Positions 2,654 to 63,200 of a stretch of DNA of 64,000 nucleotides are shown here, in pieces. The stretch's first letter is position 1. Each line of letters begins with the position of its first letter. The stretch is from contig OZ243929.1 of NCBI GenBank assembly GCA_965213995.1, positions 899,324 to 963,323 of the forward strand. The letters are read 5' to 3'. The translations under genes were made by a program, and so were the position numbers. This stretch comes from Gammaproteobacteria bacterium. Its GTDB lineage: Bacteria > Pseudomonadota > Gammaproteobacteria > Steroidobacterales > Foliamicaceae. The notes under the pieces are model-generated. The model was not told the DNA's origin, searched no databases, and saw only the letters and a list, made by a program, of their open reading frames with translations.

Positions 2654-3592
2654 ATGAGCATCGATGTGCTAGTCAGCGAAGTGGGGCCGCGCGACGGCCT
2701 GCAAAGCCTCAAAGCCATCATGCCCACCGAGGCCAAGAAGGCTTGGATCAAGGCGGAGGCCGAAGCAGGCGTGCCGGAAATCGAGGTGGGTTCCTTCGTG
2801 CCGCCCAAGCTGCTGCCGCAAATGGCCGACTGCGAGGAGCTGGTGCGTTACGCCGCCGCCATTCCCGGCTTGCAGGTCACCACGTTGGCGCCGAACCTGA
2901 AGGGCGTGGAGCGGGCGGTCGCCGCAGGCACGCACAAGGTCAGCATTCCTGTTTCCGCCAGCGAAACGCACAGCCGGTCAAACGTCCGCAAGGATCACGC
3001 CGAAATGCTGGAGGAAGTCCGGCGCATCACCGAGATGCTGGATGAGCTTGCCGAGGAGCGACGGCCCGTATTCGAGGCTGGCATCGCCACTGCGTTCGGC
3101 TGCACCATGGAAGGGCCGGTGCCCGAAAGCAAGGTGCTGGAACTGGCCCATGCGCTGGTGGAGGCGGGCTGCAAGGAAGTGGGGCTGTCCGACACCACCG
3201 GCTACGCTAATCCTGCCCAGATCCGGCGCTTGGTGCGCCTGGTTCGCTCTGAGATCGGCGAGGAGAAGCTCACCGGAGTGCATCTGCACAACACCCGCGG
3301 CTTGGGATTGGCCAACGCCGTGGCGGCGCTGGAGGAAGGCATCACCACCCTGGACAGCTCGCTAGGCGGCATTGGCGGCTGCCCCTTCGCCCCCGGCGCC
3401 AGCGGCAATATCGTGACCGAAGACTTGGTATTCATGCTGGAATCCATGGGGCTGAACACCGGCATCGACCTTAACCGGCTGCTGAAGGTGCGCGATGTGG
3501 TCGCCGCCGCGCTCCCGACCGCCGAAATGTACGGCTTCACCCCTGAAGCCGGACTGCCTCTAGGATTCCATCCCGGCTGGGGCACTGCCTAG
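2654..3592 (+). CDS. hydroxymethylglutaryl-CoA lyase (HMGL-like aldolase)
   Basis: ORF 2624..3592 trimmed to ATG 2654. Motifs EVGPRDGLQ, HLHNTRGLGLAN and GGCPFAPGASGN are typical of the HMG-CoA lyase family. Confidence 0.85.
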   Translation: MSIDVLVSEVGPRDGLQSLKAIMPTEAKKAWIKAEAEAGVPEIEVGSFVPPKLLPQMADCEELVRYAAAIPGLQVTTLAPNLKGVERAVAAGTHKVSIPVSASETHSRSNVRKDHAEMLEEVRRITEMLDELAEERRPVFEAGIATAFGCTMEGPVPESKVLELAHALVEAGCKEVGLSDTTGYANPAQIRRLVRLVRSEIGEEKLTGVHLHNTRGLGLANAVAALEEGITTLDSSLGGIGGCPFAPGASGNIVTEDLVFMLESMGLNTGIDLNRLLKVRDVVAAALPTAEMYGFTPEAGLPLGFHPGWGTA

Positions 3593-3610
3593 CCCGCATA
3601 TTGCACCAAG
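3589..3610 (+). repeat. 22-nt recurring motif CTAGCCCGCATATTGCACCAAG (copy a)
   Basis: Exact sequence read in the window. Its TAG (3590-3592) is the stop codon of the preceding gene. Other copies at 14711, 12035 (variant) and 34299 (reverse complement). Confidence 0.8.
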
Positions 3611-3629
3611 CTGCTTGCTAATCCTCCGG

Positions 3630-3750
3630 CCGCTTCGCCGTCCCGCTTCCCCGGAGATGCCAACAAGCACATCCCTGTGGGCTCCGCGGCGGCATCCATG
3701 CCGCCGAGGCTCCGGGGAAGCGGGACGGCGGAGCGGCCTTTAGCAGGCGC
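3630..3750. repeat. nested-hairpin intergenic repeat, copy 1
   Basis: Arms CCGCTTCGCCGTCCCGCTTCCCCGGAG (3630-3656) and CTCCGGGGAAGCGGGACGGCGGAGCGG (3710-3736) are complementary with 1 mismatch. 53-nt loop containing CATCCATGCC. Right flank CCTTTAGCAGGCGC. Confidence 0.85.
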
Positions 3751-3826
3751 AATCTCCCAAGGCCGCGACGACCCAGCCAAGTGGTCCGGGTAGACGGCCC
3801 GAGCAGGCGCAATCCCAAGCAGCCCC

Positions 3827-3959
3827 CCAGCTAAAGCCCTGTTCTTGCCCCTGCCTCGCGGGAGCGTCTGGGGCAGGATGCCCCAGCCGAGCCCCATGGA
3901 CGGGGTCATGCGTCTCCCGCGAGGCAGGGGCAAGAACAGGGCGAGGAGAACCCAAGGGC
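3827..3959. repeat. nested-hairpin intergenic repeat, copy 2
   Basis: Flank CCAGCTAAAGCC. Arm CTGTTCTTGCCCCTGCCTCGCGGGAG (3839-3864) is perfectly complementary to CTCCCGCGAGGCAGGGGCAAGAACAG (3914-3939). 49-nt loop with sub-hairpin CTGGGGCA-GGA-TGCCCCAG and CCATGG. Confidence 0.9.
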
Positions 3960-3967
3960 CCGCTGGC

Positions 3968-16686: not shown

Positions 16687-16854
16687 CGTTTATCTCCTCC
16701 CGCGCCCGGCGGGCGCACCGAATGACAAGTCCGGCCCCAACGACTGCAAGCGCCCTCGGGGCTTACCGCATGTCGTTACCAAGGAGAAGGGACATCGGAG
16801 ACTGCCCCGATGCTCGCTCCCGTCCGAAGGCAATGTCCCGACCGACGGACGAAC

Positions 16855-17030
16855 GACGCGATGGCAGGTCTCCTGGCTCGCCGATCAACGCTTTTTGGCC
16901 GCCTTCCCGGAGATATTCCCCAGTGGCATACGGGCCGCAAGCTTCCGGCTCACAGTTGCGGGTACAGCCTCGGATTCACACCGAGTTCCCTATTGGCCAC
17001 CTTGCGCAGGCGGCACCATCTGCCCCGCAT
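16855..17030 (-). promoter_or_regulatory. cobalamin (AdoCbl) riboswitch aptamer in the btuB leader
   Basis: The minus strand reads GGTGCC..AATAGGGAA..GGTGTGAATCC..CCCGCAACTGTGAGCC..GCCACTGGG..CGGGAAGGC..GAGCCAGGAGACCTGCCAT. The last block matches the B12-box consensus AGYCMGGAGACCKGCC. An expression platform follows, then SD GGAGGAG 6 nt before the btuB ATG. Confidence 0.85.
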
Positions 17031-17083
17031 AGTAGCGACCCCATCAGGAAAGTGTCAAGGCGCTGGCCGGGTTCACCACAGCC

Positions 17084-17579: not shown

Positions 17580-17831
17580 TCAGAAATCGATGCCGCGCAG
17601 CGCCTTGATCCCCGCTCGGAACGGATGCTTGACGGCCCGCATCTCGCTGACCAAGTCCGCGTATTCGCACAGCCCCGGCTTGGCGCTGCGGCCCGTGAGG
17701 ATCACGCTGGTTCGCGCCGACCGCGCCTCGAGGCCTTCTATGACCGAGGCTTCCGACAAATACCCGTAGCGCAGGGCGATATTGATTTCGTCCAGCACAA
17801 CAAGGTCGTAAGCGACGCGCCGCCTAGCCAA
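17580..17831 (-). pseudogene. cobO: cob(I)yrinic acid a,c-diamide adenosyltransferase, 3' fragment only
   Basis: YDLVVLDEINIALRYGYL...VILTGRSAKPGLCEYADLVSEMRAVKHPFRAGIKALRGIDF matches the last 78 or so residues of CobO/BtuR (about 196 aa). The P-loop N-terminal 120 codons are absent, and an in-frame stop lies immediately upstream. Confidence 0.8.
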
Positions 17832-17869
17832 GCAGCGCTCGCAAGCGCCGATAGGCAGTCGGCATCAAA

Positions 17870-18262
17870 CTATGCGCTTAACACCTCAATTTCCGCGCAG
17901 CTTTGCAATTTCTTGTCGCTTGTGACCAAAGTGAGGCCGAGCACCTTGGCCGAAGCGGCGATGAACCGGTCGGCGGGGTCCTGATTCGCCACAGCGATGC
18001 TTCTGCTGCTTATGGCAATTTCCATGGAAATTGGAACCTCAATAACCGGACTATTCCGCAAAGCCTTGGCGAGCCAGGATTCCGCACGGGTCGCAAGCTC
18101 GATCCTGCCCTTTTCCGCAAGCAACAATACCTCCCAGCAGCTGATCGATGATAGGTGGAGGATGGCATCTTCCGAGGCCAATGCCTTTAGCGTGTTCTCT
18201 TGAATGCGATCCGGCGCAATCAGGCTCCAAATCCATACATGCGTATCAAGCAGCAGATTCAT
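17870..18262 (-). CDS. vapC: PIN-domain toxin, VapC family
   Basis: N-terminal LLLDTHVWIW acidic motif and C-terminal LVTSD. About 130 aa, directly downstream of a Phd/YefM-type antitoxin. Confidence 0.85.
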   Translation of the reverse strand: MNLLLDTHVWIWSLIAPDRIQENTLKALASEDAILHLSSISCWEVLLLAEKGRIELATRAESWLAKALRNSPVIEVPISMEIAISSRSIAVANQDPADRFIAASAKVLGLTLVTSDKKLQSCAEIEVLSA

Positions 18263-18306
18263 GTCTCAATGGATTGATCCGATATTCACCTATCGCGGCT
18301 GCAAAA

Positions 18307-18543
18307 TCAACGCAGAGCTTCCCAATCCTCCAAATCGCCGGTCGGCTCGACAATATCGCCCGGAATCCGGCCCGTGCCTTTCATGCTCCCGATCCAGCCC
18401 GAACCCGCCGGCTTGGGGGGAGGCACGACCCGGGCGACAGGCTTGCCATAGCGGGTGACGAGCACGGGGGTGCCTGTTTCGGAAACCTGCGCTAGGACTG
18501 CGAGGCACTTGGCTTTGAATTGAGAGACGTTGATCTGATTCAT
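18307..18543 (-). CDS. Phd/YefM-family antitoxin
   Basis: ORF 18307..18594 trimmed to ATG (cat 18541-18543). MNQINVSQFKAKCLAVLAQVSETGTPVLVTRYGKPVARVVP is typical of the prevent-host-death family. Confidence 0.8.
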   Translation of the reverse strand: MNQINVSQFKAKCLAVLAQVSETGTPVLVTRYGKPVARVVPPPKPAGSGWIGSMKGTGRIPGDIVEPTGDLEDWEALR

Positions 18544-18638
18544 GCCGACGACGCTAGCATGGTCCACATAAGCAGTCAACACGCATGTTGGCAACTACAG
18601 GGAGCACATAAAGCGTCCGGTCGTATCGTCCGGCGGAA

Positions 18639-18959
18639 TCAGGCAATCAGGCGCGAGTTGATCAGGCGATTGAGGCTGATGCCCTCCTCCGCCGCCTTGA
18701 TCGCAAGCTCGCGATGAGTCGCAGGCGGAATGCGCACAACGAATTTTCCGCTGTAGGCACGCTCGGACAGCGGCTCCGGCGGAGGTTCGCCTGTGGTTTT
18801 CATGTCGGCCAGCACTCCGCCAACCAGTTTACGAATACCCGCCAGCGCCTCGGCAGGGGTAGTAGCGACCCAGCTCAGCGAGGGAAACTCCGCGCAAAGC
18901 CCAATATGCTCTCCATCCTCGGCGGACCAAGTAATTCGATAGGTGTAGTAGTCAGTCAC
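18639..18959 (-). CDS. hicB: HicB-family antitoxin with C-terminal RHH
   Basis: N-terminal HicB fold signature (YRITWSAEDGEHIGLCAEFPSL) and C-terminal RHH-like THRELAIKAAEEGISLNRLI. Overlaps the hicA-like gene by 8 nt. Confidence 0.8.
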   Translation of the reverse strand: MTDYYTYRITWSAEDGEHIGLCAEFPSLSWVATTPAEALAGIRKLVGGVLADMKTTGEPPPEPLSERAYSGKFVVRIPPATHRELAIKAAEEGISLNRLINSRLIA

Positions 18960-25567: not shown

Positions 25568-25691
25568 GGAGGGCGCTTCGATTCGCCCTCTGCTTGCTCC
25601 CTTCCTCCGGGAGACGCATAAATACATCCATGTAGCTTGCTCCGGCATCCCTGCCTCCGATACTCCCGGAGGAAGGGAGCAAGCAGAGGGC
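25568..25691. repeat. nested-hairpin intergenic repeat, copy 3
   Basis: Flank GGAGGGCGCTTCGATTC. Arm GCCCTCTGCTTGCTCCCTTCCTCCGGGAG (25585-25613) is perfectly complementary to CTCCCGGAGGAAGGGAGCAAGCAGAGGGC (25663-25691). 49-nt loop. Confidence 0.9.
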
Positions 25692-25717
25692 TTGCGGGAT
25701 GCCGACCCTCTTAGGGT

Positions 25718-25850
25718 CCGCGCCAGCCGAAGCCTTTTTGCGCGCTTGCCTCTCGCGGGAGACGCCATCCTTGGCTCGGTTCCGCCATCCATGGCTCCAA
25801 CGCTCCCGCGAGAGGCAAGCGCGCAAAAAGGCGAACCCGAAGCGACCTCC
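25718..25850. repeat. nested-hairpin intergenic repeat, copy 4 (loop in 'flip' orientation)
   Basis: Flank CCGCGCCAGCCGAAGCC. Arm CTTTTTGCGCGCTTGCCTCTCGCGGGAG is perfectly complementary to CTCCCGCGAGAGGCAAGCGCGCAAAAAG. Loop ACGCCATCCTTGGCTCGGTTCCGCCATCCATGGCTCCAACG. Right flank GCGAACCCGAAGCGACCTCC. Confidence 0.9.
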
Positions 25851-31269: not shown

Positions 31270-31947
31270 TTGCGATCGAAAAGAACCGATAAAGAAGCAG
31301 CGCTGGCGGCCAAGCGCAACGCCGCGCGGGCCGCGATCGAGCAGATCCGCCACGGCTGCCGCTTGGGCGTGGGCACGGGCAGCACCGCCAACGAGTTCAT
31401 CGCCTTGCTCCCGGAAGTCCGCGACCGGATCACGGTCGTCGCTTCCAGCTCGCAAGCCACCACCGCCCTGCTCAGCGAGCTGGGCTTCGAGGTGTTGCCG
31501 CTCAGCGAATGCGGAACGCTGGACCTCTACGTGGACGGCGCCGACGAGACCGACGATCACCGCCGCCTCATCAAAGGCGGCGGCGGCGCGCTAACCGGGG
31601 AAAAAATACTCGCGGCCTCCTCGCGGCGGTTCGTCTGCATCGTCGATGAAAACAAGCGGGTGAAGCTGCTCGGCAAATTCCCGCTTCCCGTCGAAGTCAT
31701 TCCTATGGCGCGCTCGTCGGTGGCCCGCAAGCTCGCCGCGATGGGCGGCCAGCCGCAGTACCGCGAGGGCGTGGCCACCGACTACGGCAACGAGATCCTG
31801 GATGTCCGCAATCTCAGGATCCTCGACCCGATGGAGATGGAAACCGAAATCAACCAGATTCCCGGCATCGTGACCGTGGGCCTGTTCGCCCGCCACCGAC
31901 CGGAACTCGTGATCGTGGGCACCGCGCAAGGCGCCTACTCGCTGTAA
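31270..31947 (+). CDS. rpiA: ribose-5-phosphate isomerase A
   Basis: GVGTGSTA, DGADE and KGGGGALTGEK motifs. The start is TTG at 31270 with no nearby ATG, so it is uncertain. Confidence 0.9.
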   Translation: MRSKRTDKEAALAAKRNAARAAIEQIRHGCRLGVGTGSTANEFIALLPEVRDRITVVASSSQATTALLSELGFEVLPLSECGTLDLYVDGADETDDHRRLIKGGGGALTGEKILAASSRRFVCIVDENKRVKLLGKFPLPVEVIPMARSSVARKLAAMGGQPQYREGVATDYGNEILDVRNLRILDPMEMETEINQIPGIVTVGLFARHRPELVIVGTAQGAYSL

Positions 31948-31950
31948 GCG

Positions 31951-32236
31951 CCCGCTAAAGCCCTGCGCCTGCCCGCGCCTCGTGGGAGCGTCTGGGGCAG
32001 GGCGAGCATCGGGCGCTGCGCACGGCGCAGCGAGGCAAAGCATACCTTTGCCAGATGCGAGCGGGCCGACAGGAGGTCGGCCCCGGGCGTTGCTTTTTCG
32101 ATACTGCGCGGCAGGAATGCCAACAGCAACTTATGGGAAACAGGAGGATGGGTTCTTGACCTATGCAGGTCAAGCTTCAAATAGTCATGCGTCTCCCGCG
32201 AGGCGCGGGCAGGAACAGGGCGAGGAATGGCGGGGG
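31951..32236. repeat. long-form (about 270 bp) member of the hairpin repeat family, MITE-like
   Basis: Same termini as the short form: GCTAAAGCCC, arm CCTGCCCGCGCCTCGTGGGAG / CTCCCGCGAGGCGCGGGCAGG, loop ends CGTCTGGGGCAGG...GTCATGCGT. The interior is about 190 nt with at least 4 internal stem-loops. A near-copy lies in inverse orientation at 49970-50262. Confidence 0.85.
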
Positions 32237-33888: not shown

Positions 33889-34297
33889 GCCTTCGCCTTC
33901 GCTCGCCCTCGCCCTTTGCTTGCCCCTGGCCTCGCGGGAGACGCATGAACCCATCCATGGGGCTTGGCGGCGGCTGTCCTGCCGCCTTCGCTCGCCCTCG
34001 CCCTTTGCTTGCCCCTGCCTCGCGGGAGACGCATGAACCCATCCATGGGGCTTGGCGGCGGCTGTCCTGCCGCCTTCGCTCGCCCTCGCCCTTTGCTTGC
34101 CCCTGCCTCGCGGGAGACGCATGAACCCATCCATGGGGCTTGGCGGCGGCTGTCCTGCCGCCTTCGCTCGCCCTCGCCCTTTGCTTGCCCCTGCCTCGCG
34201 GGAGACGCATGAACCCATCCATGGGGCTTGGCGGCGGCTGTCCTGCCGCCGACACTCCCGCGAGGCAGGGGCAAGCAAAGGGCTTTAGCTGGCGCGG
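33889..34297. repeat. 88-bp tandem array (4 units) of hairpin-repeat left arm plus loop, closed by one right arm
   Basis: Units start at 33895, 33984, 34072 and 34160. Unit sequence: GCCTTCGCTCGCCCTCGCCCTTTGCTTGCCCCTGCCTCGCGGGAGACGCATGAACCCATCCATGGGGCTTGGCGGCGGCTGTCCTGCC. A single closing arm CTCCCGCGAGGCAGGGGCAAGCAAAGGGC lies at 34255-34283, then flank TTTAGCTGGCGCGG. Confidence 0.95.
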
Positions 34298-34298
34298 A

Positions 34299-34319
34299 TT
34301 GGTGCAATATGCGGGCAAG
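34299..34319 (-). repeat. recurring motif, reverse-complement copy (CTTGCCCGCATATTGCACCAA)
   Basis: The plus strand reads TTGGTGCAATATGCGGGCAAG. Lies between the 88-bp array and tRNA-Pro. Confidence 0.75.
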
Positions 34320-34826: not shown

Positions 34827-34900
34827 GGGCCGTTAGCTCAACTAGGTAGAGCAGTGGACTCTTAATCCATTGGTTGCGGGTTCGATTCCCTCACGGCCCA
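34827..34900 (+). tRNA. tRNA-Lys (anticodon CTT), no encoded CCA, T-stem C:U mismatch
   Basis: Acceptor GGGCCGT/ACGGCCC, anticodon stem GTGGA/TCCAT with loop CTCTTAA. T arm GCGGG-TTCGATT-CCCTC (CCCGC expected). The discriminator A is followed by CTC, not CCA. Confidence 0.8.
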
Positions 34901-35034
34901 CTCACTTTCTGTAGCCCGTGGTCCTGCTGGAAAAACTAACGCCAAGAAGGACAAGTGATCATTAACGTCGCCATGCTGCACACCGCCTATTGACCTGTGG
35001 ACGCAAGTATTCGGTCTGTGGCTGGTTCGCTCCG

Positions 35035-35487
35035 TTATCGGGCATCGCCCAAGAATGCGCCAATAAGCTGCTTTGCGTAATGAGAAGCGGATCGGCGAAT
35101 TAGCCAACGGCTTGCGAATAGGATCAAAAAGTAAATTGCCGTTAAGGCGAGAAAGACCCAACCCATGGTCGTATCGACGTGCCAGATAAGACCAGCAGCG
35201 CATACAACGGCAGCTATGATGCTTCCTCCCGCCAAGTTTCGAAAGAAGCCGTACTCCCAATTTCTCTGCAACAATAGCGGCGATCCTCCGGCTGCCGCCC
35301 GAATGCGAGCCACTATGTCGCGGACTTGACGACGTGCCGCGATCTCGTCCCTTTCGCACAATTCGGGTGATGGCAGCTTCATGTTGAATTCCGTCTTTAC
35401 TTTTTCCGCAATTGCAACTTCGCATAGTTCGATCTGCCTGCTTGCACTCGCCATCATTTCCCAGTAGGGTTTACAGATTATATCCAT
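35035..35487 (-). CDS. small membrane protein with two C-terminal TM helices
   Basis: ORF 35035..35667 trimmed to ATG 35487 (MDIICKPYWEMM...) so that it does not overlap the divergent XRE gene; Met at 35457 is an alternative. TM segments GGSIIAAVVCAAGLIW and GWVFLALTAIYFLILFA. No recognised domain. Confidence 0.5.
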   Translation of the reverse strand: MDIICKPYWEMMASASRQIELCEVAIAEKVKTEFNMKLPSPELCERDEIAARRQVRDIVARIRAAAGGSPLLLQRNWEYGFFRNLAGGSIIAAVVCAAGLIWHVDTTMGWVFLALTAIYFLILFASRWLIRRSASHYAKQLIGAFLGDAR

Positions 35488-35497
35488 ATTGGATATA
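35479..35497. promoter_or_regulatory. perfect palindrome TATATCCA-TAT-TGGATATA in the divergent promoter region (putative XRE operator)
   Basis: 8-bp arms with a 3-nt spacer, read directly. Lies in the 35-bp gap between the 2TM gene and the XRE-ImmA gene. Confidence 0.45.
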
Positions 35498-35522
35498 TGT
35501 GTAAACTTAGGAGGAGCGAAGG

Positions 35523-36593
35523 ATGTTGGCACAACGACTGCACCGGGCACGGCAGGCGAGTGGCTTTTCGCTGCGGGCGCTGGCGGAGAAAGTTGGGGTT
35601 TCGGCAATGATGATTTCGAAGTACGAACGCGCTCAGTCCGTACCGTCCTCGGAGGTTCTGCTCTCATTGGCTAAAGCGCTCGGCGTTCGTACCGAGTACT
35701 TTTTCCGCACGTCTACAGTCAACCTTGAACGCATTGAACACCGTAATCGGAATGTTTGGAAATTGCCGAAAAGCGCGGAGAAAAAGGTACTCGCCGATGT
35801 AAGTGATCAGCTTGAGCGCTGGTTAGTACTCGACGATGTAATTCCTGCACCTTGGTCGACCCCATTCTCGTTGCCCATGGATATTCCTGAATCAGTGGAT
35901 AACTTGAATACGATCGAATCGATAGCTTCGCTAGTGCGAAATCACTGGGATCTCGGCCTGAATCCCATACCAGATCTTATTGATTCGTTGGAATCGCGCG
36001 GACTCAAGGTGTTCACGACAAAATTTGACGATCCACGATTCGAGGGAATGAGTGCGATGGCCGATGAACATTACATCATCGTTGTCAGCGGCCATTGGTC
36101 CGGTGATCGCCAACGATTTACCTTGGCTCATGAACTCGGCCATATCGTTTTAGACGATCGCCTTACGCAGGAAATTGACAAAGAAGACGCTGCAAATCGT
36201 TTTGCGGGCGCCTTCTTGGCGCCGGAAGAAAAGGTTATGGAAACCTTGGGCGCAAAACGTCGGGCTTTGGAATTCGCCGAACTGTATCTGTTGAAACACG
36301 AATTTGGATTGAGTATGGCCGGGTGGAGTTATCGAGCACTCAATCTGAACATCGTCACAAAAGCATCCCACAAGGCGTTTTGGACTGACTTTGCTGCCAA
36401 AGGGTGGAATGTAGAGGAACCTGGTCAACCATATCCTTCAGAATCGCCTCGATTGTTTCAGCAAACTGTCTATCGCGCACTCAGCGAGGAATTGATTGGT
36501 GAATCCAAGGCTGCGGAACTGCTATCCATAACTGCAAATGAACTCGCCGCTCGACGGCGGATGGAGATCGTTAATGGCGATTCTGGTCGGTGA
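35523..36593 (+). CDS. XRE-family HTH fused to ImmA/IrrE zinc metallopeptidase
   Basis: AGGAGG RBS, ATG start. N-terminal HTH (FSLRALAEKVGVSAMMISKYERAQSVPS) and HEXXH motif in FTLAHELGHIVL (COG2856-type). Confidence 0.85.
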   Translation: MLAQRLHRARQASGFSLRALAEKVGVSAMMISKYERAQSVPSSEVLLSLAKALGVRTEYFFRTSTVNLERIEHRNRNVWKLPKSAEKKVLADVSDQLERWLVLDDVIPAPWSTPFSLPMDIPESVDNLNTIESIASLVRNHWDLGLNPIPDLIDSLESRGLKVFTTKFDDPRFEGMSAMADEHYIIVVSGHWSGDRQRFTLAHELGHIVLDDRLTQEIDKEDAANRFAGAFLAPEEKVMETLGAKRRALEFAELYLLKHEFGLSMAGWSYRALNLNIVTKASHKAFWTDFAAKGWNVEEPGQPYPSESPRLFQQTVYRALSEELIGESKAAELLSITANELAARRRMEIVNGDSGR

Positions 36594-36741
36594 TGCAAAT
36601 ATCTTTATTGACGTCACTGTTTCAAATCTCTCTGAGGCAATGTTCCGTCTTGAAGACACCATCGCCACACCGGATGTTTTGTATCAAGATGAGCTTCTGC
36701 AACACCACCCGGAATTACCAGGCTTAGGGTTGCAAATTAAT
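36574..36741 (+). pseudogene. PIN-like nuclease gene truncated by an IS end
   Basis: MAILVGDANIFIDVTVSNLSEAMFRLEDTIATPDVLYQDEL resembles the N-terminal strand-Asp-helix of PIN-like (DUF3368/DUF4411-type) partners of XRE-ImmA genes. The reading frame runs into the IS inverted repeat at 36742. Confidence 0.5.
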
Positions 36742-37080
36742 TGTGCGGGTTCAGGACATGTGGGACTGGCGGGGTTCAGTTGTCCTTTGCTTGCGAAAGT
36801 ATTCCATCGGGGTCATCAAGTCCAGCGCGCAGTGGGACCGGACATGGTTGTGGAAGCGCTGGTATTCGGCCAATGCGGGCGCGGCGTACTTGGCGGTCTT
36901 TCTCCTCGGCAGAGGTTCCAGAACTCGGTTGTGGAGCTGTCGCTGGCGCGCTCGACGATGCCATTGATCTCGGGGCATTTGGGCGGCAGGACGGCCAGCG
37001 GGAGGCCGAGCGCCTGGCAGGCGCACTTTCGTCCAGTATCTAGAAGCCGTAATCCCCTACTACTGCGACAGAGTAGGCCA
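36742..37080 (-). mobile_element. IS remnant: right inverted repeat plus frameshifted 3' third of a DDE (rve) transposase
   Basis: IR TGTGCGGGTTCAGGACATGTGGGACTGGCGGGGTTCAG at 36742-36779. Minus-strand fragments read LLDTGRKCACQALGLPLAVLPPKCPEINGIVER... and, after a frameshift, YQRFHNHVRSHCALDLMTPMEYFRKQ. These correspond to the DNG..F, P.TNGKVER and YN..RPH.AL...TP motifs of IS3/IS481-type integrase cores. Confidence 0.65.
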
Positions 37081-37296
37081 GCAACTGCGGCGCTAGACCT
37101 CACCTGCTCCCCTAAAGAAAGAACGAAACGAGGGCCTAGCTGAGAGTGCAAATTAGAAAATCCAGTCAAAGACTGCGCCAAGTTTCATCTCGGATCGGAT
37201 AAAACAACCCTCACGCCCGCGTAAGTTTCGCTTTGTTCCCTGTTATGGTTGCGCGGCGGTTAGCGACATCCCGAGGCAAGCGACCACTCACGGACA

Positions 37297-38313
37297 ATGA
37301 GCGAAACAATAGCAGTGCGCGTCGAACCGGGAGAAACGCTCTCGGAGATTGCCATCCGGCACAGCGTCACCGTCGAGCAATTGCAGGAATGGAATCGGAT
37401 CGAAGAAGCGGACTATGTGCAGGCGGGCCAGAGAATCGTCGTCCATAAGGCGGCGGTTGCTCCAGGCTGGAACGAAGCGGCCGCCCCTTGGGATGCATTG
37501 CTGGGAGGAGCGCTCGTTGTAGCGGCACTGTTATTCCTGTTCCGCCGCAAACGCCAAACTCCGACTTCGTCGCCTGATACCGGAGTCCGCCCACCGAAAA
37601 AAGCACCACATCGGCCCGAACCGAAATCCGCTGCGGCATTGCGGAAACCCGCGCCGCCAGCAAACGCCGGCGAGCAACGGGTCCGATCAGTGTTGGCGAG
37701 GCGTTATCGGGACTGGCCGCTGCTTAATGACGTGCTGCTTCCGTCCGGGGGAGGGACGGCACAGATCGATCACATCCTCATCTCGCCCGCCGGCGTGTTC
37801 GTAATCGAGACCAAGGACATGGGCGGTTGGATATTCGCAAGTCCCGGGCAGCAACGGTGGACGCAAACATTGCCGGCGGGCCGTTGGTCCCGCATGATGG
37901 GCATCAAGTCGAGGCGGTTCCCTTTCTACAATCCGCTGCGGCAGAATGAAGGGCACGCGAAGGCCTTGGTCAAACTCGGCATCGTTAATCCTAGGGAGAT
38001 TCGGCCTGTCGCCGTATTCGTGGGCGAGGCCGAGATGAAAACGGAGGAGAAGTTCGCAGGATTCGAGGAGCATGAAGAGAAGGCAAAGCGGTTCCGTAGC
38101 TGGCGAATGCGAGGCGTTGTCTGCATGAGCCTGCGGGAGTTGCGGCGCTACATCGCCTTCTCCGTTCGTGCGCCATCAGGACCAAGCCTGACGCGCGAGA
38201 GGATGGAAGCGATCCGGTCAAAGATAGCAAAAGCTGCCCTGCCCTTGACGGCGGAAACTCACGCCAGACATGTCGAGTTCGCCCGGTCTGCTGAACGAGC
38301 ATCGTGGCAATGA
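37297..38313 (+). CDS. LysM - transmembrane - NERD domain fusion protein
   Basis: LysM: VRVEPGETLSEIAIRHSVTVEQLQEWNRIEEADYVQAGQRIVV. TM: ALLGGALVVAALLFLF followed by RRKRQ. NERD: GEQRVRSVLARRYRDWPLLNDVLLP..TAQIDHILISPAGVFVIETKDMGGWIF. Confidence 0.75.
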   Translation: MSETIAVRVEPGETLSEIAIRHSVTVEQLQEWNRIEEADYVQAGQRIVVHKAAVAPGWNEAAAPWDALLGGALVVAALLFLFRRKRQTPTSSPDTGVRPPKKAPHRPEPKSAAALRKPAPPANAGEQRVRSVLARRYRDWPLLNDVLLPSGGGTAQIDHILISPAGVFVIETKDMGGWIFASPGQQRWTQTLPAGRWSRMMGIKSRRFPFYNPLRQNEGHAKALVKLGIVNPREIRPVAVFVGEAEMKTEEKFAGFEEHEEKAKRFRSWRMRGVVCMSLRELRRYIAFSVRAPSGPSLTRERMEAIRSKIAKAALPLTAETHARHVEFARSAERASWQ

Positions 38314-38495
38314 ACCGCAATATCGCATGTTTGGGCTGGGGGCCTCTCATCTGGGATCCCCCGAGATCACGCACAAGTCAGCCGAAATCGGTCCCGTCAA
38401 GAATGCTCTTTAGGTGGTCGCGCCACGCGGCTTTGCCGTCTTCATCGGAAACTTCCTGCCACAGATGGTTCAGTATCCCTCTGGCGCGCTCCCGG

Positions 38496-39125
38496 TCAGG
38501 CGAAGCCATTGCTGCCGGAAGCCGGATCGAAATTCATCCACAATGATTCCCGCCTGATGCTCTTGGAGGAGTTGCAGATTTTCTCCGGCGCATCCACTCG
38601 GCGCCAATCGCCGAACAGCTCGTCGTAAAGATCGCATCGGTATCCTGAAAGCACCGCCCGACCCTTCACGCTTTGCAGCGCAGCAGCCATGTCGCGGTGG
38701 TCCTGGTCGGTCATTTCATGCCCGTAAGCACTCGAATCCCCTCGGCTGTTATGAACATAAGGAGGATCCAAGTAGAAAAGCGTTTTCGGCGTGTCGTAGC
38801 GTTGGACAACTTCCAAGGCGGGAGCGTTCTCGATCTGCACTCGCTGCAATCTTTGCGCGATTTCCGGCAGCCCTTCAACCGCTCCTAGCCAACGGGAAAC
38901 AGCGCCAGCCATGCCGGCTCTGGAAGTCAGGACGCAGTGAGCCCAACGCCCTTCGCTGCTCGTTTGCGCGAGCCCCGTGCGGGTTTGCCGCGCCCGAACG
39001 TAGAACCGGCGGGCACGCTCAAGAGATGACAGGTTCTCCGATGAGCCGCACGCTTTGACGAGTTCCGCTCTTGAGAACGGCGTCAGCCCGATGCCACGAA
39101 TAAGATCGTCGGGCTGGTCGCGCAA
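38496..39125 (-). pseudogene. D12-class (Dam-like) N6-adenine DNA methyltransferase lacking its N-terminal SAM-binding region
   Basis: Catalytic FYLDPPY motif and a Dam-like C-terminal half. The ORF opens right after an in-frame stop (39135-39137) and begins at a TTG. The usual N-terminal 60-90 residues (KWAGGK...FxGxG) are missing. It abuts the Fic gene stop. Confidence 0.65.
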
Positions 39126-39140
39126 AACGGCAATTCAGGA

Positions 39141-40481
39141 TTAGCCCAGCTTCCGCAGTCGCTCTTCGGTATTTTCCGCCGGACGGAAGATAAATGAGCG
39201 ACCGCGTTTGGTCATTTTCAGCAAACCGAGGTCAGCGAGCTTAAGCAGATCGGTTCGAGCCGTTTGATAGGTTACGTTGTGTGAAGTCCGGTGGCTGCGG
39301 ATCGTATATAGCTGATCGGGCTGCTTTCGCGCGGAAATCAATAGCGCCATCTGTCGGTGGTTAAGAATGGTTGTCAGCGCCGATCCGGCAAGAAGGCGCT
39401 GAACCTCGGAAATTTCTTTTGATTTTCGCGCCAGGTACTTGTGGAGCCGCTCAATCGCGCCAAGAATGACGCGAAGGTTGTAGTCAATGAAATAGGTGGC
39501 GTCATTGTCATCGGTTTCCGAAAAAATATACGACCTCGCGTACTGCGCTGGCGCTTTGCGAATAATGGTCGAGATTGAAAGGCACTCCGCCATCCAGTAC
39601 CCGGCGCGCGCCATGGCCCAGTAGAAAAGAGCGCGAGCGGTCCGCCCGTTGCCGTCAACAAACGGGTGCTCGTAGCCGATCATGAAGTGCAGGAGCACGG
39701 CCTTAATCACAGGATGAATGAACGAGGCGTCGTCCGTATGATTGGCAAAACGGAAAAGGTTATTCAGACGTTCTTCGAGATGGGCGGCATTGGGCGGAAT
39801 ATGCAGCACCTCGTTGTCCCGGCTGTCAATAACAAGCACCTCATCCTCGGCTCGCCTGAACCGGCCCGCAATGCCTGCATCGTTCGTCGTGCCCTCGACG
39901 AGGATGCTCTGCAGCTCCAGCAGCAAGGACATGGACAGATTCTCCCCGCCGAGTTCTCGAAGAAACTCCATGGCGCGGTAATTGTTGGCAATCATCCTTT
40001 CGCTTTTGGTCTGCGGTTCGCGCCCGGTTCGCAGCATCTCCTTGGCGACGCGGCGGGTTGTGGCAGCGCCCTCTAGTTGACTTGAGGTAATCGCTTCTTC
40101 GATCAGCGAGCTCACTAGGTAGCGATTCCGCGATTGCGGATTCACAACGTCAACCGGCAATTCGATACGACCGCTGGCATCGCGATCGATCTGGTGAAGC
40201 ATCCGGTTCAGATACCCTGAGTCGCTGAACGAAAATCGGCATCCGTTCTTGTCAGCAAGCGGAAGCTCGTGTCTTATCGAAGCCCTTGCGAACTTTATTG
40301 CCAGCCACCATTCTTCATTGGATATCCCCTCAGGTGGCTGCATGTGCTTCAGTTTTGACCAATGCGCATATCGGTCATTCGGGATATTCCCCACTCCGGA
40401 TGAGACCAGATTCAGGATTTTCCTTGCCTGCTCATGGGAATCCAAGCCGCTCAGGGAAGGCAGCGGAGAAGGCAGCTTCAT
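39141..40481 (-). CDS. Fic-family protein (AMPylase type) with autoinhibitory helix and C-terminal winged-helix
   Basis: Fic motif HPFVDGNGRTARAL and inhibitory motif SSQLEG. Start placed at ATG 40481; the track start at 40520 is TTG. Confidence 0.88.
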   Translation of the reverse strand: MKLPSPLPSLSGLDSHEQARKILNLVSSGVGNIPNDRYAHWSKLKHMQPPEGISNEEWWLAIKFARASIRHELPLADKNGCRFSFSDSGYLNRMLHQIDRDASGRIELPVDVVNPQSRNRYLVSSLIEEAITSSQLEGAATTRRVAKEMLRTGREPQTKSERMIANNYRAMEFLRELGGENLSMSLLLELQSILVEGTTNDAGIAGRFRRAEDEVLVIDSRDNEVLHIPPNAAHLEERLNNLFRFANHTDDASFIHPVIKAVLLHFMIGYEHPFVDGNGRTARALFYWAMARAGYWMAECLSISTIIRKAPAQYARSYIFSETDDNDATYFIDYNLRVILGAIERLHKYLARKSKEISEVQRLLAGSALTTILNHRQMALLISARKQPDQLYTIRSHRTSHNVTYQTARTDLLKLADLGLLKMTKRGRSFIFRPAENTEERLRKLG

Positions 40482-40525
40482 TGAGAATAAACCTAGACTG
40501 GAAGGCAAGCCAAATATCAATTTTC

Positions 40526-40598
40526 TACTAATTCATATCAAATTAGTAACTCGTGGCGCCCAATGTAAATAAAATACTAATTAATGTCAAATTAGTAT
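40526..40598. promoter_or_regulatory. two operator-like palindromes upstream of Fic gene 1
   Basis: TACTAATT-CATATCA-AATTAGTA (40526-40548) and ATACTAATT-AATGTCA-AATTAGTAT (40574-40598). Both have the same half-site and a 7-nt spacer, in an AT-rich region. Confidence 0.5.
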
Positions 40599-40624
40599 TT
40601 TGATTCAGGCTAGCGCGCTCAGAT

Positions 40625-40663
40625 CAACCCGATCCCAGTCCCGCATGTGTCTGAACCCGCACA
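40625..40663 (+). mobile_element. solo IS terminal inverted repeat (IRL-type)
   Basis: ...CCCAGTCCCGCATGTGTCTGAACCCGCACA. Its last 20 nt are identical to 17101-17120. It is in inverted orientation relative to the IS end at 36742. Confidence 0.55.
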
Positions 40664-40831
40664 TGACTCCACCGGCCGCCAACAATCATGTGATAGTATG
40701 CACACATGATTGCTATCACAAGAGGCGTTGAACATGCTGGCCTTAGGAACTAGCACGGCTTGCCGGAATCGGCGGCTGGGTCGGCCCGTGAAACGCCAAA
40801 CGATAGCAAGACACCACTACTTGGAGGAGTC

Positions 40832-41491
40832 ATGTATATTAAATCCCCCCCCCCCCCTTCAAAAAAACTAGCGCTACTTGCAGCAACCGCACTGCTATCC
40901 GCCACCCAGCTAGCATTAGCAGCACCTGGAGTATCTCTGGGCACAAAGCAAAGCAACATGGGCGGAAGTGAGCTCACCCTTTCATTGACCTGCGGTACGA
41001 AAGGATATCTCGCCACAGGGGTTGGAGAGGACCATGCGACCTATCTGGGGCAGCGACAGCGTAGTGACGGCTCCAACACGACTCCGTTGGAGTCCGGGCT
41101 CGTCAATCTTGCGTCCACGTACTTCTACGTCCGAGGGGTAGGTATCGGAAGAGCATCGGATGACGGTAATTTCTCGCCCCTTCCAGAAAATCATCCCGGG
41201 CGTGCCTGGGGCGCAAAGAGATGGGGAGATTTATGGGGTGCCGTCATGCAGCCTCGTTACGAGGTTGACATTGAGTTGACCGCGACTCCACAGCCGGACC
41301 CTCCGGTGTATTTCGTAACTAACAACACTAGCGGTATTCCAGTCGAGAGCAAGACTGTGATCGTTCAGCGCAGGTATGACACCCCATACGCAGAGCAAAA
41401 CGTGAGCTTGGTGCGTTACTGCGATCTCAATTCCAAAGAAACGATCAGTGTCACCATCAATGGAAGGATCACAGGCAAAAGGCCATTGTGA
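40832..41491 (+). CDS. secreted hypothetical protein with a C13 tract in its signal-peptide codons
   Basis: GGAGGA 4 nt upstream of ATG 40832. MYIKSPPPPSKKLALLAATALLSATQLALA|APG looks like a Sec signal peptide. The mature part has no recognised domain. Confidence 0.6.
   Translation: MYIKSPPPPSKKLALLAATALLSATQLALAAPGVSLGTKQSNMGGSELTLSLTCGTKGYLATGVGEDHATYLGQRQRSDGSNTTPLESGLVNLASTYFYVRGVGIGRASDDGNFSPLPENHPGRAWGAKRWGDLWGAVMQPRYEVDIELTATPQPDPPVYFVTNNTSGIPVESKTVIVQRRYDTPYAEQNVSLVRYCDLNSKETISVTINGRITGKRPL
40845..40857 (+). repeat. homopolymeric C13 tract followed by TTC and A7
   Basis: Counted directly: 6 C at 40845-40850 plus 7 C at 40851-40857. A7 at 40861-40867. Confidence 0.95.
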
Positions 41492-41749
41492 TCCTTGAGA
41501 CGACCGACGGAAGCATGGTGGAGTCATGATCCGTTGCCCTCCTCACCATCCCTGCACTCGCGACGGCGGAGCTATGCGACGACCACTGGTACGACAACCT
41601 CCATCGAAAAATCGAACCCGATAACTAACTCTACGCGGGGATTACCGGAGCAAGGCCTTGGGCCTGTACTCCGACACCATCATGCGCCCGGCTGCGGAAA
41701 TCGAAAAGCATCTGGCGCGGCGGAAGGCGGCGCAGGAAGCGGAAAGCCG

Positions 41750-42679
41750 TTAGGCGCGCTGATCCGACCAGGCGGCCACGATTTCGGCGGCCGGGGCCGA
41801 CCAGATGCCGGCCTGCTCCGAAATATGCTTCAAAGCCGATTCCAAGGCGGCGATGCGATGCGGCTGGCCCATGAGCCAGGGATGGATGGACAGGGCCAGC
41901 AGCCGCCCGTGCCCGGTGGCCTCGGCCTCCGCCAAAAGGTAATCGCAGGCATCCTTCACTTGCTCGGCGTACTCCCATTCCGAGTGCAGATTGCTCTGGA
42001 TAATGAACTGGTCGTCGAGTTCCAGCGATAGAGGCAGCGCAACCAACTCGCCGTGCCGGATGGCGAACGGATAGGGCATATCGTCGTTGATCCAGTCGCC
42101 CATATAGCGCAGTCCGGCCTCGGCGAGCAGATCCGGCGTGTTGTGGCTTTGCGACCGCGCCGGGCTTAGCCAGCCCGTAACGGGTTGATCCACGGCCGCG
42201 CGCAGGGCGCTGAGCGAACGGTCGATCAACTCGCGCTCGTCTTCAATAGCCAGCTCGCCGTGATGCAGGGTGTCCATGTGCCAGGAACTCGCCAGAATCT
42301 CGTTGCCGCGCCGGTTCAGGCGCTCTAGCAACTGCGGGCAACGCTCGGCGATGGCCGCGTTCACGGAAAAAGTAGGCGTGAAGCCCGCATGGTCCAGCGC
42401 TTCGAGGCAGCGGAACAGGCCCACCCGGTTGCCGTAATCGCGCAGCGTGTAGTGGCGCAGGTCCGGGTACGGGGTGCTCATGCCGCCCGGCGGGGGAAAC
42501 GGCTTGCCGCGCTGGTTCAGCGGGAAGAACTGCACCGCCAAGTTGATCCAAAGCGCCAGCCGGGCGCCGTTGGGCCATGCGACCGGAGCGCGGCGCGACA
42601 GCATCGACCACTCGTAGCGGTTGTGGTCCATGCCGTAGCGGCGGCGCTCGTATTTCAGGTAGGCCGGGTCAAGCGCCAT
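41750..42679 (-). CDS. polysaccharide deacetylase-family hydrolase (PuuE/allantoinase-like), paralog 1
   Basis: ORF 41750..42757 trimmed to Met MALDPAYLKYERRRYGMDHNRY. Motifs RDYGNRVG and WHMD... are typical of the divergent NodB-fold family. Confidence 0.75.
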   Translation of the reverse strand: MALDPAYLKYERRRYGMDHNRYEWSMLSRRAPVAWPNGARLALWINLAVQFFPLNQRGKPFPPPGGMSTPYPDLRHYTLRDYGNRVGLFRCLEALDHAGFTPTFSVNAAIAERCPQLLERLNRRGNEILASSWHMDTLHHGELAIEDERELIDRSLSALRAAVDQPVTGWLSPARSQSHNTPDLLAEAGLRYMGDWINDDMPYPFAIRHGELVALPLSLELDDQFIIQSNLHSEWEYAEQVKDACDYLLAEAEATGHGRLLALSIHPWLMGQPHRIAALESALKHISEQAGIWSAPAAEIVAAWSDQRA

Positions 42680-43616: not shown

Positions 43617-43623
43617 ACCGCCC

Positions 43624-44337: not shown

Positions 44338-44432
44338 CGGCGCACCCGGGCAATGGCATGACGGTCGATAAAGCCCATGTTAATCCATCAACGGCTTGAA
44401 GCCGGCCTCGTCGTTGCCGAACCCGCCGGCAA

Positions 44433-45524: not shown

Positions 45525-45562
45525 GTTGTCCTGTATCCCGCTGATGCGGATGGGTCCGCGGA

Positions 45563-45623
45563 ACATGTCGATTTTATCGACATGTCGCTGAAACATGTCG
45601 ATAAAATTGAATTATATCGACAT
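45563..45623. promoter_or_regulatory. two operator-like palindromes upstream of Fic gene 2
   Basis: ACATGTCGAT-TTT-ATCGACATGT (45563-45585, perfect 10-bp arms) and ATGTCGATA-N11-TATCGACAT (45595-45623). Confidence 0.5.
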
Positions 45624-45643
45624 ATCCTAACGCAGCAAGCAGT

Positions 45644-46015: not shown

Positions 46016-46018
46016 GCA

Positions 46019-46657: not shown

Positions 46658-46739
46658 TGCTGATTTCTCCTTGGATGGCAGATTGAGGTTATCTTGCCCG
46701 TTTGTTGATTGTTCTTAATTGGCGCTACCCCGCCTTCTG

Positions 46740-48693: not shown

Positions 48694-48791
48694 TGCCCTA
48701 GCTCCTTGGCTTGATGCGTGGTTGGCATGTTCGCTGCCTTGCTCCGCAACGGTCGGATTGCATTATCCTAAAGCAAAAGCCTTTTCGCGGG

Positions 48792-49969: not shown

Positions 49970-50262
49970 GGGCCGTGCTTCCTCCGCCCTTTCTCCCCCC
50001 TTTCCCGCAGGAGACGCATGACTACTTGAAGCTTGACCTGCATAGGTCAAGAACCCATCCTCCTTCTTCCCGGGAGTTGCTGTTGGCATCCCTGCCGCGC
50101 GGCGGTGCCGGAATCACGCCCGGGGCCGGCCTCCTGTCGGCCCGCTCGCATCTGGCAAAGGCATGCTTTGCCTCGCTGCGCTGCGCACAGCGACCGATGC
50201 TCGCCCTGCCGCCGACACTCCTGCGGGAAAGGAGGGGAGAAAGGGCTCACGACGGCGCTGAC
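49970..50262. repeat. long-form hairpin-repeat element, inverse-orientation copy
   Basis: Arms GCCCTTTCTCCCCCCTTTCCCGCAGGAG (49986-50013) and CTCCTGCGGGAAAGGAGGGGAGAAAGGGC (50218-50246). The interior is the reverse complement of 31989-32192, with a diverged central segment. Confidence 0.85.
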
Positions 50263-50295: not shown

Positions 50296-50360
50296 CTCCC
50301 ATAGCCTGTTCTTGCCCCTTCCTTCCGGGAGTATTGGAGGCAGGATGCCGATCATCAGGG
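50296..50360. repeat. half hairpin-repeat element (left arm plus loop start only)
   Basis: CTGTTCTTGCCCCTTCCTTCCGGGAG followed by TATTGGAGGCAGGATGCCGAT. No matching right arm before the next element begins. Confidence 0.7.
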
Positions 50361-50493
50361 GCCGCGCCAGCCGAAGCCTCTATGCGCGTTTCCCTCTCGC
50401 GGGAGTGTTGGAGCCAGGGATGGCGGAACCAAGCCAGGGATGGCGCCTCCCGCGAGAGGGAAACGCGCATAGAGGCGGAATCGAAGCGCCTCC
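50361..50493. repeat. nested-hairpin intergenic repeat, copy with loop in 'flop' orientation
   Basis: Flank GCCGCGCCAGCCGAAGCC. Arm TCTATGCGCGTTTCCCTCTCGCGGGAG is perfectly complementary to CTCCCGCGAGAGGGAAACGCGCATAGA. Loop TGTTGGAGCCAGGGATGGCGGAACCAAGCCAGGGATGGCGC. Right flank GGCGGAATCGAAGCGCCTCC. Confidence 0.9.
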
Positions 50494-52710: not shown

Positions 52711-52876
52711 GCCCGTCCCCTTTTTCCGGGAGACGCATGCCGCTTTGGGTTCGCCTCTTTGCGCGTTCCCCTCTCGCGGGAGACGCATGAACCCATCCAT
52801 GGGGCTTGGCGGCGGCTGTCCTGCCGCCGACACTCCCGCGAGAGGGGAACGCGCAAACAGGCTTCGGCTGGCGCGG
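52711..52876. repeat. half element plus one complete nested-hairpin repeat
   Basis: Half element: GCCCGTCCCCTTTTTCCGGGAGACGCATGCCGC. Full copy: arm CTCTTTGCGCGTTCCCCTCTCGCGGGAG, loop ACGCATGAACCCATCCATGGGGCTTGGCGGCGGCTGTCCTGCCGCCGACA, arm CTCCCGCGAGAGGGGAACGCGCAAACAG, flank GGCTTCGGCTGGCGCGG. Confidence 0.9.
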
Positions 52877-52946
52877 GCGCAGGCTTTTCTTGGCAGAGGC
52901 GGCAAGAGGGTAGAATCCGCTCGTTCATTTCGGCAGCTCCTCCCCT

Positions 52947-63141: not shown

Positions 63142-63200
63142 GGGCTTTGCCTCGTTGCCTCTTGCGCGGAAACGCATGAAGGGGAACAGGACTAAAGCCC
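63142..63200. repeat. degenerate hairpin-repeat fragment
   Basis: GGGCTTTGCCTCGTTGCCTCTTGCGCGGAA-ACGCATGA-...ACTAAAGCCC retains the arm, loop start and flank motifs but has no complementary arm. It is followed by a 28-nt direct repeat TAAAGCCCGCGC(A/G)CGCGTCCGCCGCAA at 63193 and 63252. Confidence 0.5.

Follow-up and report, generated by a model that had tools for sequence, protein, structure and literature searches.

What are the large hairpins that recur between the genes of a sponge-associated bacterium of the Candidatus Foliamicus group, and how do their arms remain complementary while differing from copy to copy? These questions are raised by a 64,000-nucleotide stretch of contig OZ243929.1 (positions 899,324 to 963,323; hereafter, the window), in which a reading of the DNA letters (the original prediction) had described at least 12 copies or fragments of a nested-hairpin intergenic repeat. 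On balance, the units probably constitute a non-autonomous, lineage-specific family of interspersed palindromic repeats resembling bacterial interspersed mosaic elements (BIMEs) and REPINs, with arms that are kept perfect at the DNA level. The evidence that carries this reading is the scarcity of mismatches and of G.T pairs in stems of many different sequences, the mirrored changes in the arms of orthologous copies, and the placement, pairing, and presence or absence of units among relatives.

The pattern CTCGCGGGAG-N30-60-CTCCCGCGAG had 5 matches in the window and 0 in 100 shuffles. An inverted-repeat scan returned seven arm pairs of 29-30 nt, spaced 41-53 nt apart, of which five were 100% and two 97% complementary, and the 10-mer ATGCGTCTCC is present in 10 copies, all of them inside units, against 0.11 expected. 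These counts support that the units are real and strongly non-random. An nhmmer profile seeded with the 7 complete window units recovered 13 non-overlapping pieces from the window, and the tally stands at 7 complete units, 2 long forms (~290 nt), three 88-nt half-units in tandem, and 3 fragments (Table 1). Family members are present at every one of the coordinates proposed originally, but not always as plain copies. Long forms, in which ordinary termini enclose a ~200-nt interior, lie at 31951-32236 and 49970-50262; the region 33889-34297 resolves into the three 88-nt half-units and one complete unit, 50296-50360 and 52711-52745 each hold a half-unit, and 63142-63200 is a degenerate fragment of weak membership that nhmmer misses.

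Each unit has asymmetric flanks, X and Y, which define its orientation. An X flank (…GCGCCAGCYRAA or …CCGCAA) is followed by a 5' arm consisting of GCC and ~17 pyrimidine-rich nt and by the stem base CTCGCGGGAG (variants CTCCGGGAG, CCGCAGGAG, and CCCCGGAG); after the loop, the 3' half of the unit is the exact complement of stem base and arm and leads into the Y flank (GAAYCGAAGCGCC, or GAGGG.AAGCACAC). The stem thus measures 29-30 bp, the loop 41-54 nt, and the hairpin 101-111 nt overall. When six units were folded as single-stranded DNA (z-scores between −9.7 and −12.8), each gave a long stem topped by a pair of mini-hairpins. The mini-hairpins read NNCA-KGGA-TGNN, and GGGA or TGGA is predicted to form 4-nt loops closed by CA/TG. 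The sub-hairpin of the original prediction is therefore present, but there are two rather than one, and the CCATGG core that was ascribed to the loop is limited to some loop types. In an alignment of 43 units, the invariant or near-invariant columns are those of the stem base, both CA.GGA(T)G motifs (with the GGA of both mini-hairpins invariant across all 43), and the tail GCGTCTCC; the arm ends are not among them. At least five loop types (a-e) are combined as a mosaic with arm types, which fall into A/D-, F-, B/C/E-, and G-type subfamilies. Based on these folds, the unit is predicted to be a large (~110 nt), Y-shaped, three-way-junction hairpin. Conservation points to the interior, i.e., the stem base CTCGCGGGAG, the two CA-KGGA-TG mini-hairpins, and the tail ATGCGT, as the putative functional core, while the 17-20 nt distal arms would merely have to pair.

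In the loops of two units of related genomes (L071, 2242-2440; L074, 6098-6290), a small palindrome, GTGCGCCAATGGCTTGGCGCAC, is nested; it extends these loops to 62-71 nt, and the stems are still perfect. Here and below, labels of this kind denote stretches of related genomes, which are fragments of 8-22 kb.

The claim that the arms co-vary between copies was borne out, with 28 of the 30 main-stem pairs changed on both sides. In a MAFFT alignment of 43 sequences, we counted 346 double-changed cells, compared to 97 ± 9 after shuffling and 42-100 when the partner column was slid by 1-3 columns; in the same alignment, 4 of 7 and 2 of 4 pairs of the two mini-hairpins also co-vary. An alignment-free count took in 44 units of the window and of related metagenome-assembled genomes (MAGs), each with a stem of ≥26 bp; of 1286 stem positions, 1277 were Watson-Crick pairs, and the nine others comprised 4 T.G, 2 G.G, 1 C.A, 1 A.A, and 1 T.C; G.T pairs thus make up 0.3% of stem positions. 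The covariation argument would have lost its force if copies elsewhere had non-complementary arms or essentially identical ones. Instead, the arms stay paired throughout, and there are dozens of distinct arm sequences, although the subfamilies suggest that part of this diversity is subfamily structure.

Orthologous copies are informative about how pairing is kept. In L021 (Ca. Foliamicus) and L029 (the MAG r_cahl1), which share one copy, the loops are ~95% identical and the flanking genes 73-85%; a 6-nt indel and a C/G change distinguish the arms of the two copies, and each is mirrored in the opposite arm, so that both stems are perfect. Similarly, at two sites common to the window and r_cahl1, 4 and 3 arm positions differ, and the stems are free of mismatches in both genomes. 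The least perfect stems are those of long forms H and I, the arms of which are >200 nt apart (3 mismatches and 1 indel, respectively). The scarcity of G.T pairs, the lack of an orientation bias relative to genes (see below), and the mirrored indel argue that pairing is kept at the level of DNA and not of RNA. Template switching between the arms of inverted repeats homogenizes arms, inverts spacers, and favors short spacers (PMC8604942), and it may, according to one proposal, also generate and preserve perfect hairpins via apparent compensatory changes (PMC8794818). Under this quasipalindrome model (Ripley model; PMC8604942, PMC8794818), arms should stay perfect even as they diverge, changes of several nucleotides should appear mirrored, spacers should now and then be inverted, and the process should act more weakly across long spacers. 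The family displays each of these: spacer inversion was seen once, in unit B, whose loop is identical at 36 of 41 positions to the reverse complement of the loop of unit C although the flanks of B and C are alike (90% identical), and the long forms fit the expectation for long spacers. Most likely, therefore, the stems are kept perfect by arm-to-arm DNA templating rather than by selection on RNA. We note that template switching is a mutational process and not an element family, and leaves the spread of the units and the conservation of their loops unexplained. A flip/flop equilibrium of the loop like that of adeno-associated virus was ruled out, because an inverted loop is found in only 1 of ~45 units.

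Placement was scored over the window and related loci using a gene model based on codon-usage log-odds. In agreement with the original prediction, 63 of 64 units are intergenic. Its statement that units mostly follow gene 3' ends is accurate insofar as most unit-bearing regions contain one, but not for the cluster at 49.97-50.49 kb, which sits between divergent genes. Among the unit-bearing regions, ~11-13 are convergent, 22-24 tandem, and 3 divergent (3 of ~38); the small number of divergent contexts supports that promoter-only regions are avoided. The distance from the stop codon is 1-70 nt in most regions. A tally of lone units in tandem-gene contexts gave 8 sense and 7 antisense to the upstream gene; an orientation bias relative to genes, apparent in the window alone, was gone with more loci. 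By contrast, the orientation of adjacent units relative to each other is far from even, with 16 (−)(+), 5 (−)(−), 1 (+)(+), and 0 (+)(−) pairs, and three of the five (−)(−) pairs belong to the tandem array of the window. Judging from these counts, units join head-to-head through adjoining X flanks. Heterodimers of two classes, F/B and G/A, recur in several genomes. The genes bracketed by units are those for a Coq7-like protein, RpoC, aldehyde dehydrogenase, and H+-pyrophosphatase.

In a species scan with the stem-base pattern, in which each species was represented by one genome, at least 93 stretches matched. The profile recognized units in 28 of these at least 93 stretches listed, all 28 from six Gammaproteobacteria MAGs, and the remaining 65 of the 93 listed were chance palindromes from unrelated taxa. 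The six unit-bearing MAGs among the matches listed are JAPYNE01 ("r_cahl1"), which is ~92% identical to the window and syntenic with it, JAPOTY01 ("CAR4_bin_12"), OZ244880 (Ca. Foliamicus), OX639965, VYBN01, and JAPPHC01. With further loci added, the family amounts to 79 pieces across 33 stretches, all from Foliamicales-type gammaproteobacterial MAGs. The H+-pyrophosphatase of the window has ~40 homologues at 89-98% identity, which form a tight clade including Candidatus Foliamicus sp., a member of the gammaproteobacterial order Candidatus Foliamicales; the next match is at 77%. Among the matches listed, no source other than Candidatus Foliamicales-type Gammaproteobacteria yielded members of the family; the scan leaves exclusivity to the clade beyond these matches unproven. 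JGI metagenome records gave 4 matches, while searches of viral contigs and of plasmids gave no match to the family. Several contig ends of related genomes fall within units (L096, 20939-20980; the starts of L102 and L103; and the starts of L036, L088, and L090), which suggests that the family interrupts short-read assembly of these MAGs.

Comparison with relatives revealed that sites are polymorphic. The site between the H+-pyrophosphatase (PPase) and OEP genes contains fragment K and unit E (~220 nt) in the window, is empty in L096 and L097 (~94% nucleotide identity) and in L095, and is occupied by an unrelated unit in L094. The site between the aldehyde dehydrogenase (aldDH) gene and tRNA-Pro is occupied in three genomes (the window, L084, and L102), while L104 and L105 have only 10-11 nt from the stop codon to the conserved GGTGTTATCAT. 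The rpiA-aldDH site is occupied in the window (by H), L102, and L103 but not in L104; the TSCPD-RNR site is filled in L096 and has remnants in L094 and L095, compared to a spacer of just 31 nt in the window; and L069 carries one unit that L014 is without. Occupied sites also differ in content. Relative to the window, r_cahl1 has the whole F/B dimer inverted and, upstream of tRNA-Pro, a unit of opposite orientation and other loop type. L094 and L095 have units of opposite orientation at one site. Where the window has long form I and half-unit J, a short unit with matching arms and a complete unit, respectively, are found in L096 and L097. The fusion of J to unit C at GGATGCCGA retains the orthologous Y flank, which indicates ectopic recombination with a dimer of the F/B type.

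Two further differences concern the spacers themselves. Upstream of thiF, thiS and JAB genes are present in the more distantly related L094 (9164-9858) and L095 (9184-9974); the window (49920-50510), L096, and L097 are without them, and repeat units fill the space. In L105 (5700-5990), likewise from a more distant relative, the rpiA-aldDH spacer contains two copies of a different, ~100-nt direct repeat with a motif, GGCGCCTTCGATC, that resembles the Y flank, and this repeat may represent a related family.

Based on these data, we suggest the following scenario. Units, often as head-to-head heterodimers, would colonize intergenic regions that contain gene 3' ends. An enzyme encoded elsewhere would act in trans by recognizing the conserved loops and junction, perhaps in single-stranded DNA that has folded, and copies would often exchange sequence by ectopic recombination or gene conversion, adding to the spread. 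Within a unit, one arm would template the other, either by intramolecular template switching (quasipalindrome correction) or by arm-to-arm gene conversion, which would turn a single mutation, even an indel, into a mirrored change and now and then invert the spacer. The data show the anatomy and distribution of the units, their perfect and co-varying pairing, the polymorphism of sites, and the rearrangements; both the mode of mobilization and the template-switch mechanism are what we infer from these.

Several points weigh against this scenario. No transposase domain was detected in the 50 window proteins scanned with Pfam, and the genes bracketed by units are housekeeping genes with no mobilizing gene among them. 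At four filled/empty comparisons, neither a target-site duplication nor a clean insertion junction could be made out, since rearrangement or divergence has affected the junctions and the flanks of filled sites. The repeated occupation of intergenic regions by units of varied orientations and arms could be produced by long residence together with recombination instead of by transposition, and some "orthologous" copies may be replacements. Stems would be equally perfect if selection acted on the DNA itself to preserve a functional cruciform or hairpin, and the present data do not separate such selection from templating. Finally, loops are more conserved than neighboring coding DNA, which makes a host function plausible.

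A host function could be exerted by RNA. If units were cis-acting hairpins in 3' untranslated regions, i.e., terminators or mRNA-stabilizing or -processing elements as known for ERIC, Correia, and REP sequences, selection on RNA would keep the stems. This explanation, which we regard as unlikely, fits the position of most units 1-70 nt past stop codons, the under-representation of divergent regions (3 of ~38), the high stability of the predicted folds, and the UUU, UUC, or UUG that follows the stem when it is read from the Y side. However, no intrinsic terminator was called among the units located at 24-35 kb of the window, which lack a U-tract and have at most 2-3 T on one side; orientation relative to genes is unbiased; some units are in 5' regions; and 4 G.T pairs in 1286 positions together with a mirrored indel are unexpected under RNA-level selection. 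Alternatively, units could be RNA ligands of CsrA/RsmA, with two GGA-loop mini-hairpins on a stable stem forming a dual site, and function as dispersed regulatory sites or as a sponge. CsrA ligands obtained by SELEX (systematic evolution of ligands by exponential enrichment) have the consensus RUACARGGAUGU, whose ACA and GGA are invariant and whose GGA lies within a hairpin loop (PMC4347634). The most conserved loop positions of the family are CA-KGGA-TG in both mini-hairpins, GGGA or TGGA occupies a 4-nt loop with CA/TG closure in the predicted folds, and CUACAUGGAUGU in loops of type c and CCACAGGGAUGU in those of type e come close to this consensus. Moreover, CAKGGATG occurs 20 times in the window compared to 5.6 expected, with 13 of the 20 inside units, and a head-to-head dimer presents one sense unit in a transcript from either side. 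Nevertheless, we consider this explanation rather improbable: lone units are about as often antisense as sense to the upstream gene (7 and 8, respectively), G.U pairs are nearly absent from stems, and the CsrB and Rsm families of Rfam are unmatched. A tblastn search with Escherichia coli CsrA gave no match in the clade DNA, which covers <15% of one genome and renders this result uninformative. The stronger version, that the interior is a mobile dual-site CsrA/RsmA-binding module serving as a genome-wide distributed sponge or as post-transcriptional wiring, appears more doubtful still; in that case, head-to-head dimers would guarantee one sense copy whichever the direction of transcription, and, extrapolating from the density in the window, this reduced symbiont genome may hold a few hundred dispersed copies, each of which would display two near-consensus GGA hairpins on a rigid stem. 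Short, repeated hairpins that carry GGA in the loop, near the SELEX consensus, are common to the family and the CsrB/RsmY/RsmZ RNAs; however, each of those RNAs has its own discrete small RNA gene, equipped with a terminator and numerous GGA hairpins, whereas the family is a dispersed DNA repeat in both orientations with two GGA hairpins per unit.

Other explanations invoke recombination enzymes acting on DNA. Classical miniature inverted-repeat transposable elements (MITEs), i.e., deletion derivatives of an insertion sequence (IS) with a DDE transposase that mobilizes them via sequence-specific terminal inverted repeats, would account for the presence/absence polymorphism between relatives and for short and long forms with common termini, as in MITE/IS series. 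We judge it very unlikely that units are of this kind. Their terminal 17-20 nt vary strongly within one genome while the interior is conserved, which is the reverse of what recognition by a transposase would require; the ~200-nt interior of the long forms is without an open reading frame (ORF); target-site duplications are not visible at the diverged or rearranged junctions; and neither a transposase among the 50 window proteins scanned nor a parent IS was seen. Conserved structure with a variable stem sequence is a hallmark of integron attC sites, and units share it. It is nonetheless extremely improbable that units are attC-like or other structure-recognized sites of site-specific recombination, and the attC-like reading is contradicted by their anatomy: the foot reads AA|GCC...GGC|GA without R''/R' core sites (GTTRRRY), the stems are perfect and have no extrahelical bases, and units are scattered beside housekeeping genes and form no cassette arrays.

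The members of the family in the window are listed in Table 1.

Table 1. Members of the repeat family in the window (positions count from the first nucleotide of the window)
Feature	Position	Strand	Hairpin or arms	Stem	Loop or interior	Remarks
Unit G	3608..3758	−	3628-3738	29 bp, 1 mismatch	53 nt, type e	Left half of head-to-head G/A dimer
Unit A	3821..3961	+	3836-3942	29 bp, perfect	49 nt, type b	X flank CCAGCTAAA; Y flank GAGGAGAACCC
Unit F	25568..25712	−	25585-25691	29 bp, perfect	type c	Stem base CTCCGGGAG; left half of F/B dimer
Unit B	25711..25849	+	25732-25832	30 bp, perfect	41 nt, type d	Loop inverted relative to its X/Y flanks ("flop" form)
Long form H	31945..32228	+	31960-31988 / 32193-32221	3 mismatches	~200 nt	
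Half-unit tandem array	33906..34169	−				Three copies of 88 nt, each with Y flank, one arm, and loop as far as first mini-hairpin
Unit D	34170..34299	−	34176-34283	29 bp, perfect	50 nt, type a	Closes tandem array; 108 nt upstream of tRNA-Pro
Long form I	49970..50262	−	49986-50013 / 50218-50246	1-nt indel between arms		
Half-unit J	50297..50349	+				X flank, left arm, and loop start; joined to unit C at GGATGCCGA
Unit C	50355..50493	+	50376-50476	30 bp, perfect	41 nt, type d	Two GCCA-GGGA-TGGC mini-hairpins in loop
Fragment K	52711..52745	−				One arm, stem base CCGGGAG, and ACGCATG
Unit E	52739..52880	−	52753-52862	30 bp, 1 mismatch	50 nt, type a	
Fragment L	63142..63200	undefined				Degenerate; arm-like, with ACGCATGA and CTAAAGCCC motifs; identified by eye

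The interiors of long forms H and I are 87% identical and in opposite orientation. H and I also share an extra 31-nt module (32156-32185 [+] in H; 50023-50053 [−] in I) with a sigma70-like TTGACC-18-AATAGT directed outward, toward the aldehyde dehydrogenase gene in H and the thiF-like gene in I. Judging from this motif, a long form may deliver a promoter to the downstream gene.

Outside the family, the window contains a low-GC (55-58%) island at 34900-48700, immediately after a tRNA-Pro/Arg/His/Lys cluster. It has defense-type genes, which encode a helix-turn-helix (HTH) protein with an M78 peptidase, a NERD and LysM protein, a D12 methyltransferase fragment, two Fic proteins, an HNH and HTH protein, and a NotI-like endonuclease with a C5 methylase, and its content varies among the relatives L084, L096, L102, and L104. 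A 68-nt direct repeat in the island (36741-36808 and 45643-45710; 81% identical) has one copy near each Fic gene and may mark module boundaries. Upstream of an operon for a TonB-dependent receptor and a BtuCDF-like ABC transporter lies a cobalamin riboswitch (16846-17036 [−]; 127 bits). At 17580-18959, a BtuR/CobO ORF spans only profile positions 96-172 of 172, looks truncated, and adjoins PIN-domain and HicB toxin-antitoxin genes. Lastly, the gene for a CCDC90-like/DUF1640 coiled-coil membrane protein (63383-63961) contains seven tandem 33-nt (11-codon) repeats at 63582-63896.

The view that the repeat belongs to no named family was confirmed by the searches made. In addition to the lack of plasmid and viral matches, a search of the whole window against Rfam 15 in gathering and E-value modes found no family for the units; the models that passed were tRNAs and the cobalamin riboswitch, and units gave only sub-threshold matches to hairpin models of animal miRNA precursors. 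No site for the ERIC1R and ERIC2 primers was found within 3 mismatches, and in the literature on Foliamicus or comparable sponge symbionts, we found nothing on such a family. As a kind of element, interspersed extragenic palindromic repeats are well known; the family itself is undescribed and lineage-specific.

This family adds an undescribed repeat from an uncultured order of sponge symbionts. Its main value is as a clean case, found in nature, in which evolution looks compensatory but homogenization of the arms at the DNA level accounts for it better than selection on RNA, a caution for covariation-based RNA discovery, and as an entry to the protein-nucleic acid recognition system that may act on the units. 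Its units mark hotspots of rearrangement and gene loss and, possibly, of promoter delivery. If the loops were to bind a protein such as a transposase or CsrA, they would offer a direct way into that system in a lineage that cannot be cultivated. The design of the family is best appreciated by comparison with known repeats.

A REP unit is an imperfect palindrome of about 20-40 nt. Like the REP, BIME, and REPIN sequences of Enterobacteria and Pseudomonas, which are associated with RAYT genes, the family is abundant, extragenic, palindromic, and non-coding, combines two unit types head-to-head with characteristic linkers, and resides mostly at gene ends with no evident target duplications. The doublet organization of BIMEs is seen in the 16 of 22 adjacent pairs that are (−)(+) with none (+)(−), and in the recurrence of the F/B and G/A heterodimers. 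However, the hairpins are 3-4 times larger than REP units and thus outside the REP size range. Their stems are perfect, 29-30 bp long, and variable in sequence, with conservation in the interior of the three-way junction and not in the stem. In place of the GTAG-type 5' motif of REPs, the flanks read ...GCTAAA, ...GCCGAA, or ...CCGCAA before the arm, and GTAG was found at only one unit (L075). No RAYT gene was seen in the 64 kb and the related fragments. With ERIC/IRU sequences (~127-bp enterobacterial palindromes), the family shares size, a long hairpin, occurrence in both orientations in intergenic and probably transcribed regions, and longer variants with internal insertions at fixed points; ERICs, however, are conserved over their full length and the family only in its interior, there is no sequence relationship as judged by primer sites, and pairing in the family looks to be kept at the DNA level. 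Correia/NEMIS elements and other bacterial MITEs are similar in being non-autonomous and ~100-150 bp long, with inverted ends, short and long forms, and insertion polymorphism, but have conserved terminal repeats around a dispensable interior and target-site duplications (TA for Correia), neither of which holds for the family. The design, a large Y shape with a conserved interior, variable yet perfect arms, heterodimers, and long forms, is unusual, and its logic is inverted relative to that of MITEs and REPs: the interior is conserved, while the arms vary and yet stay perfect.

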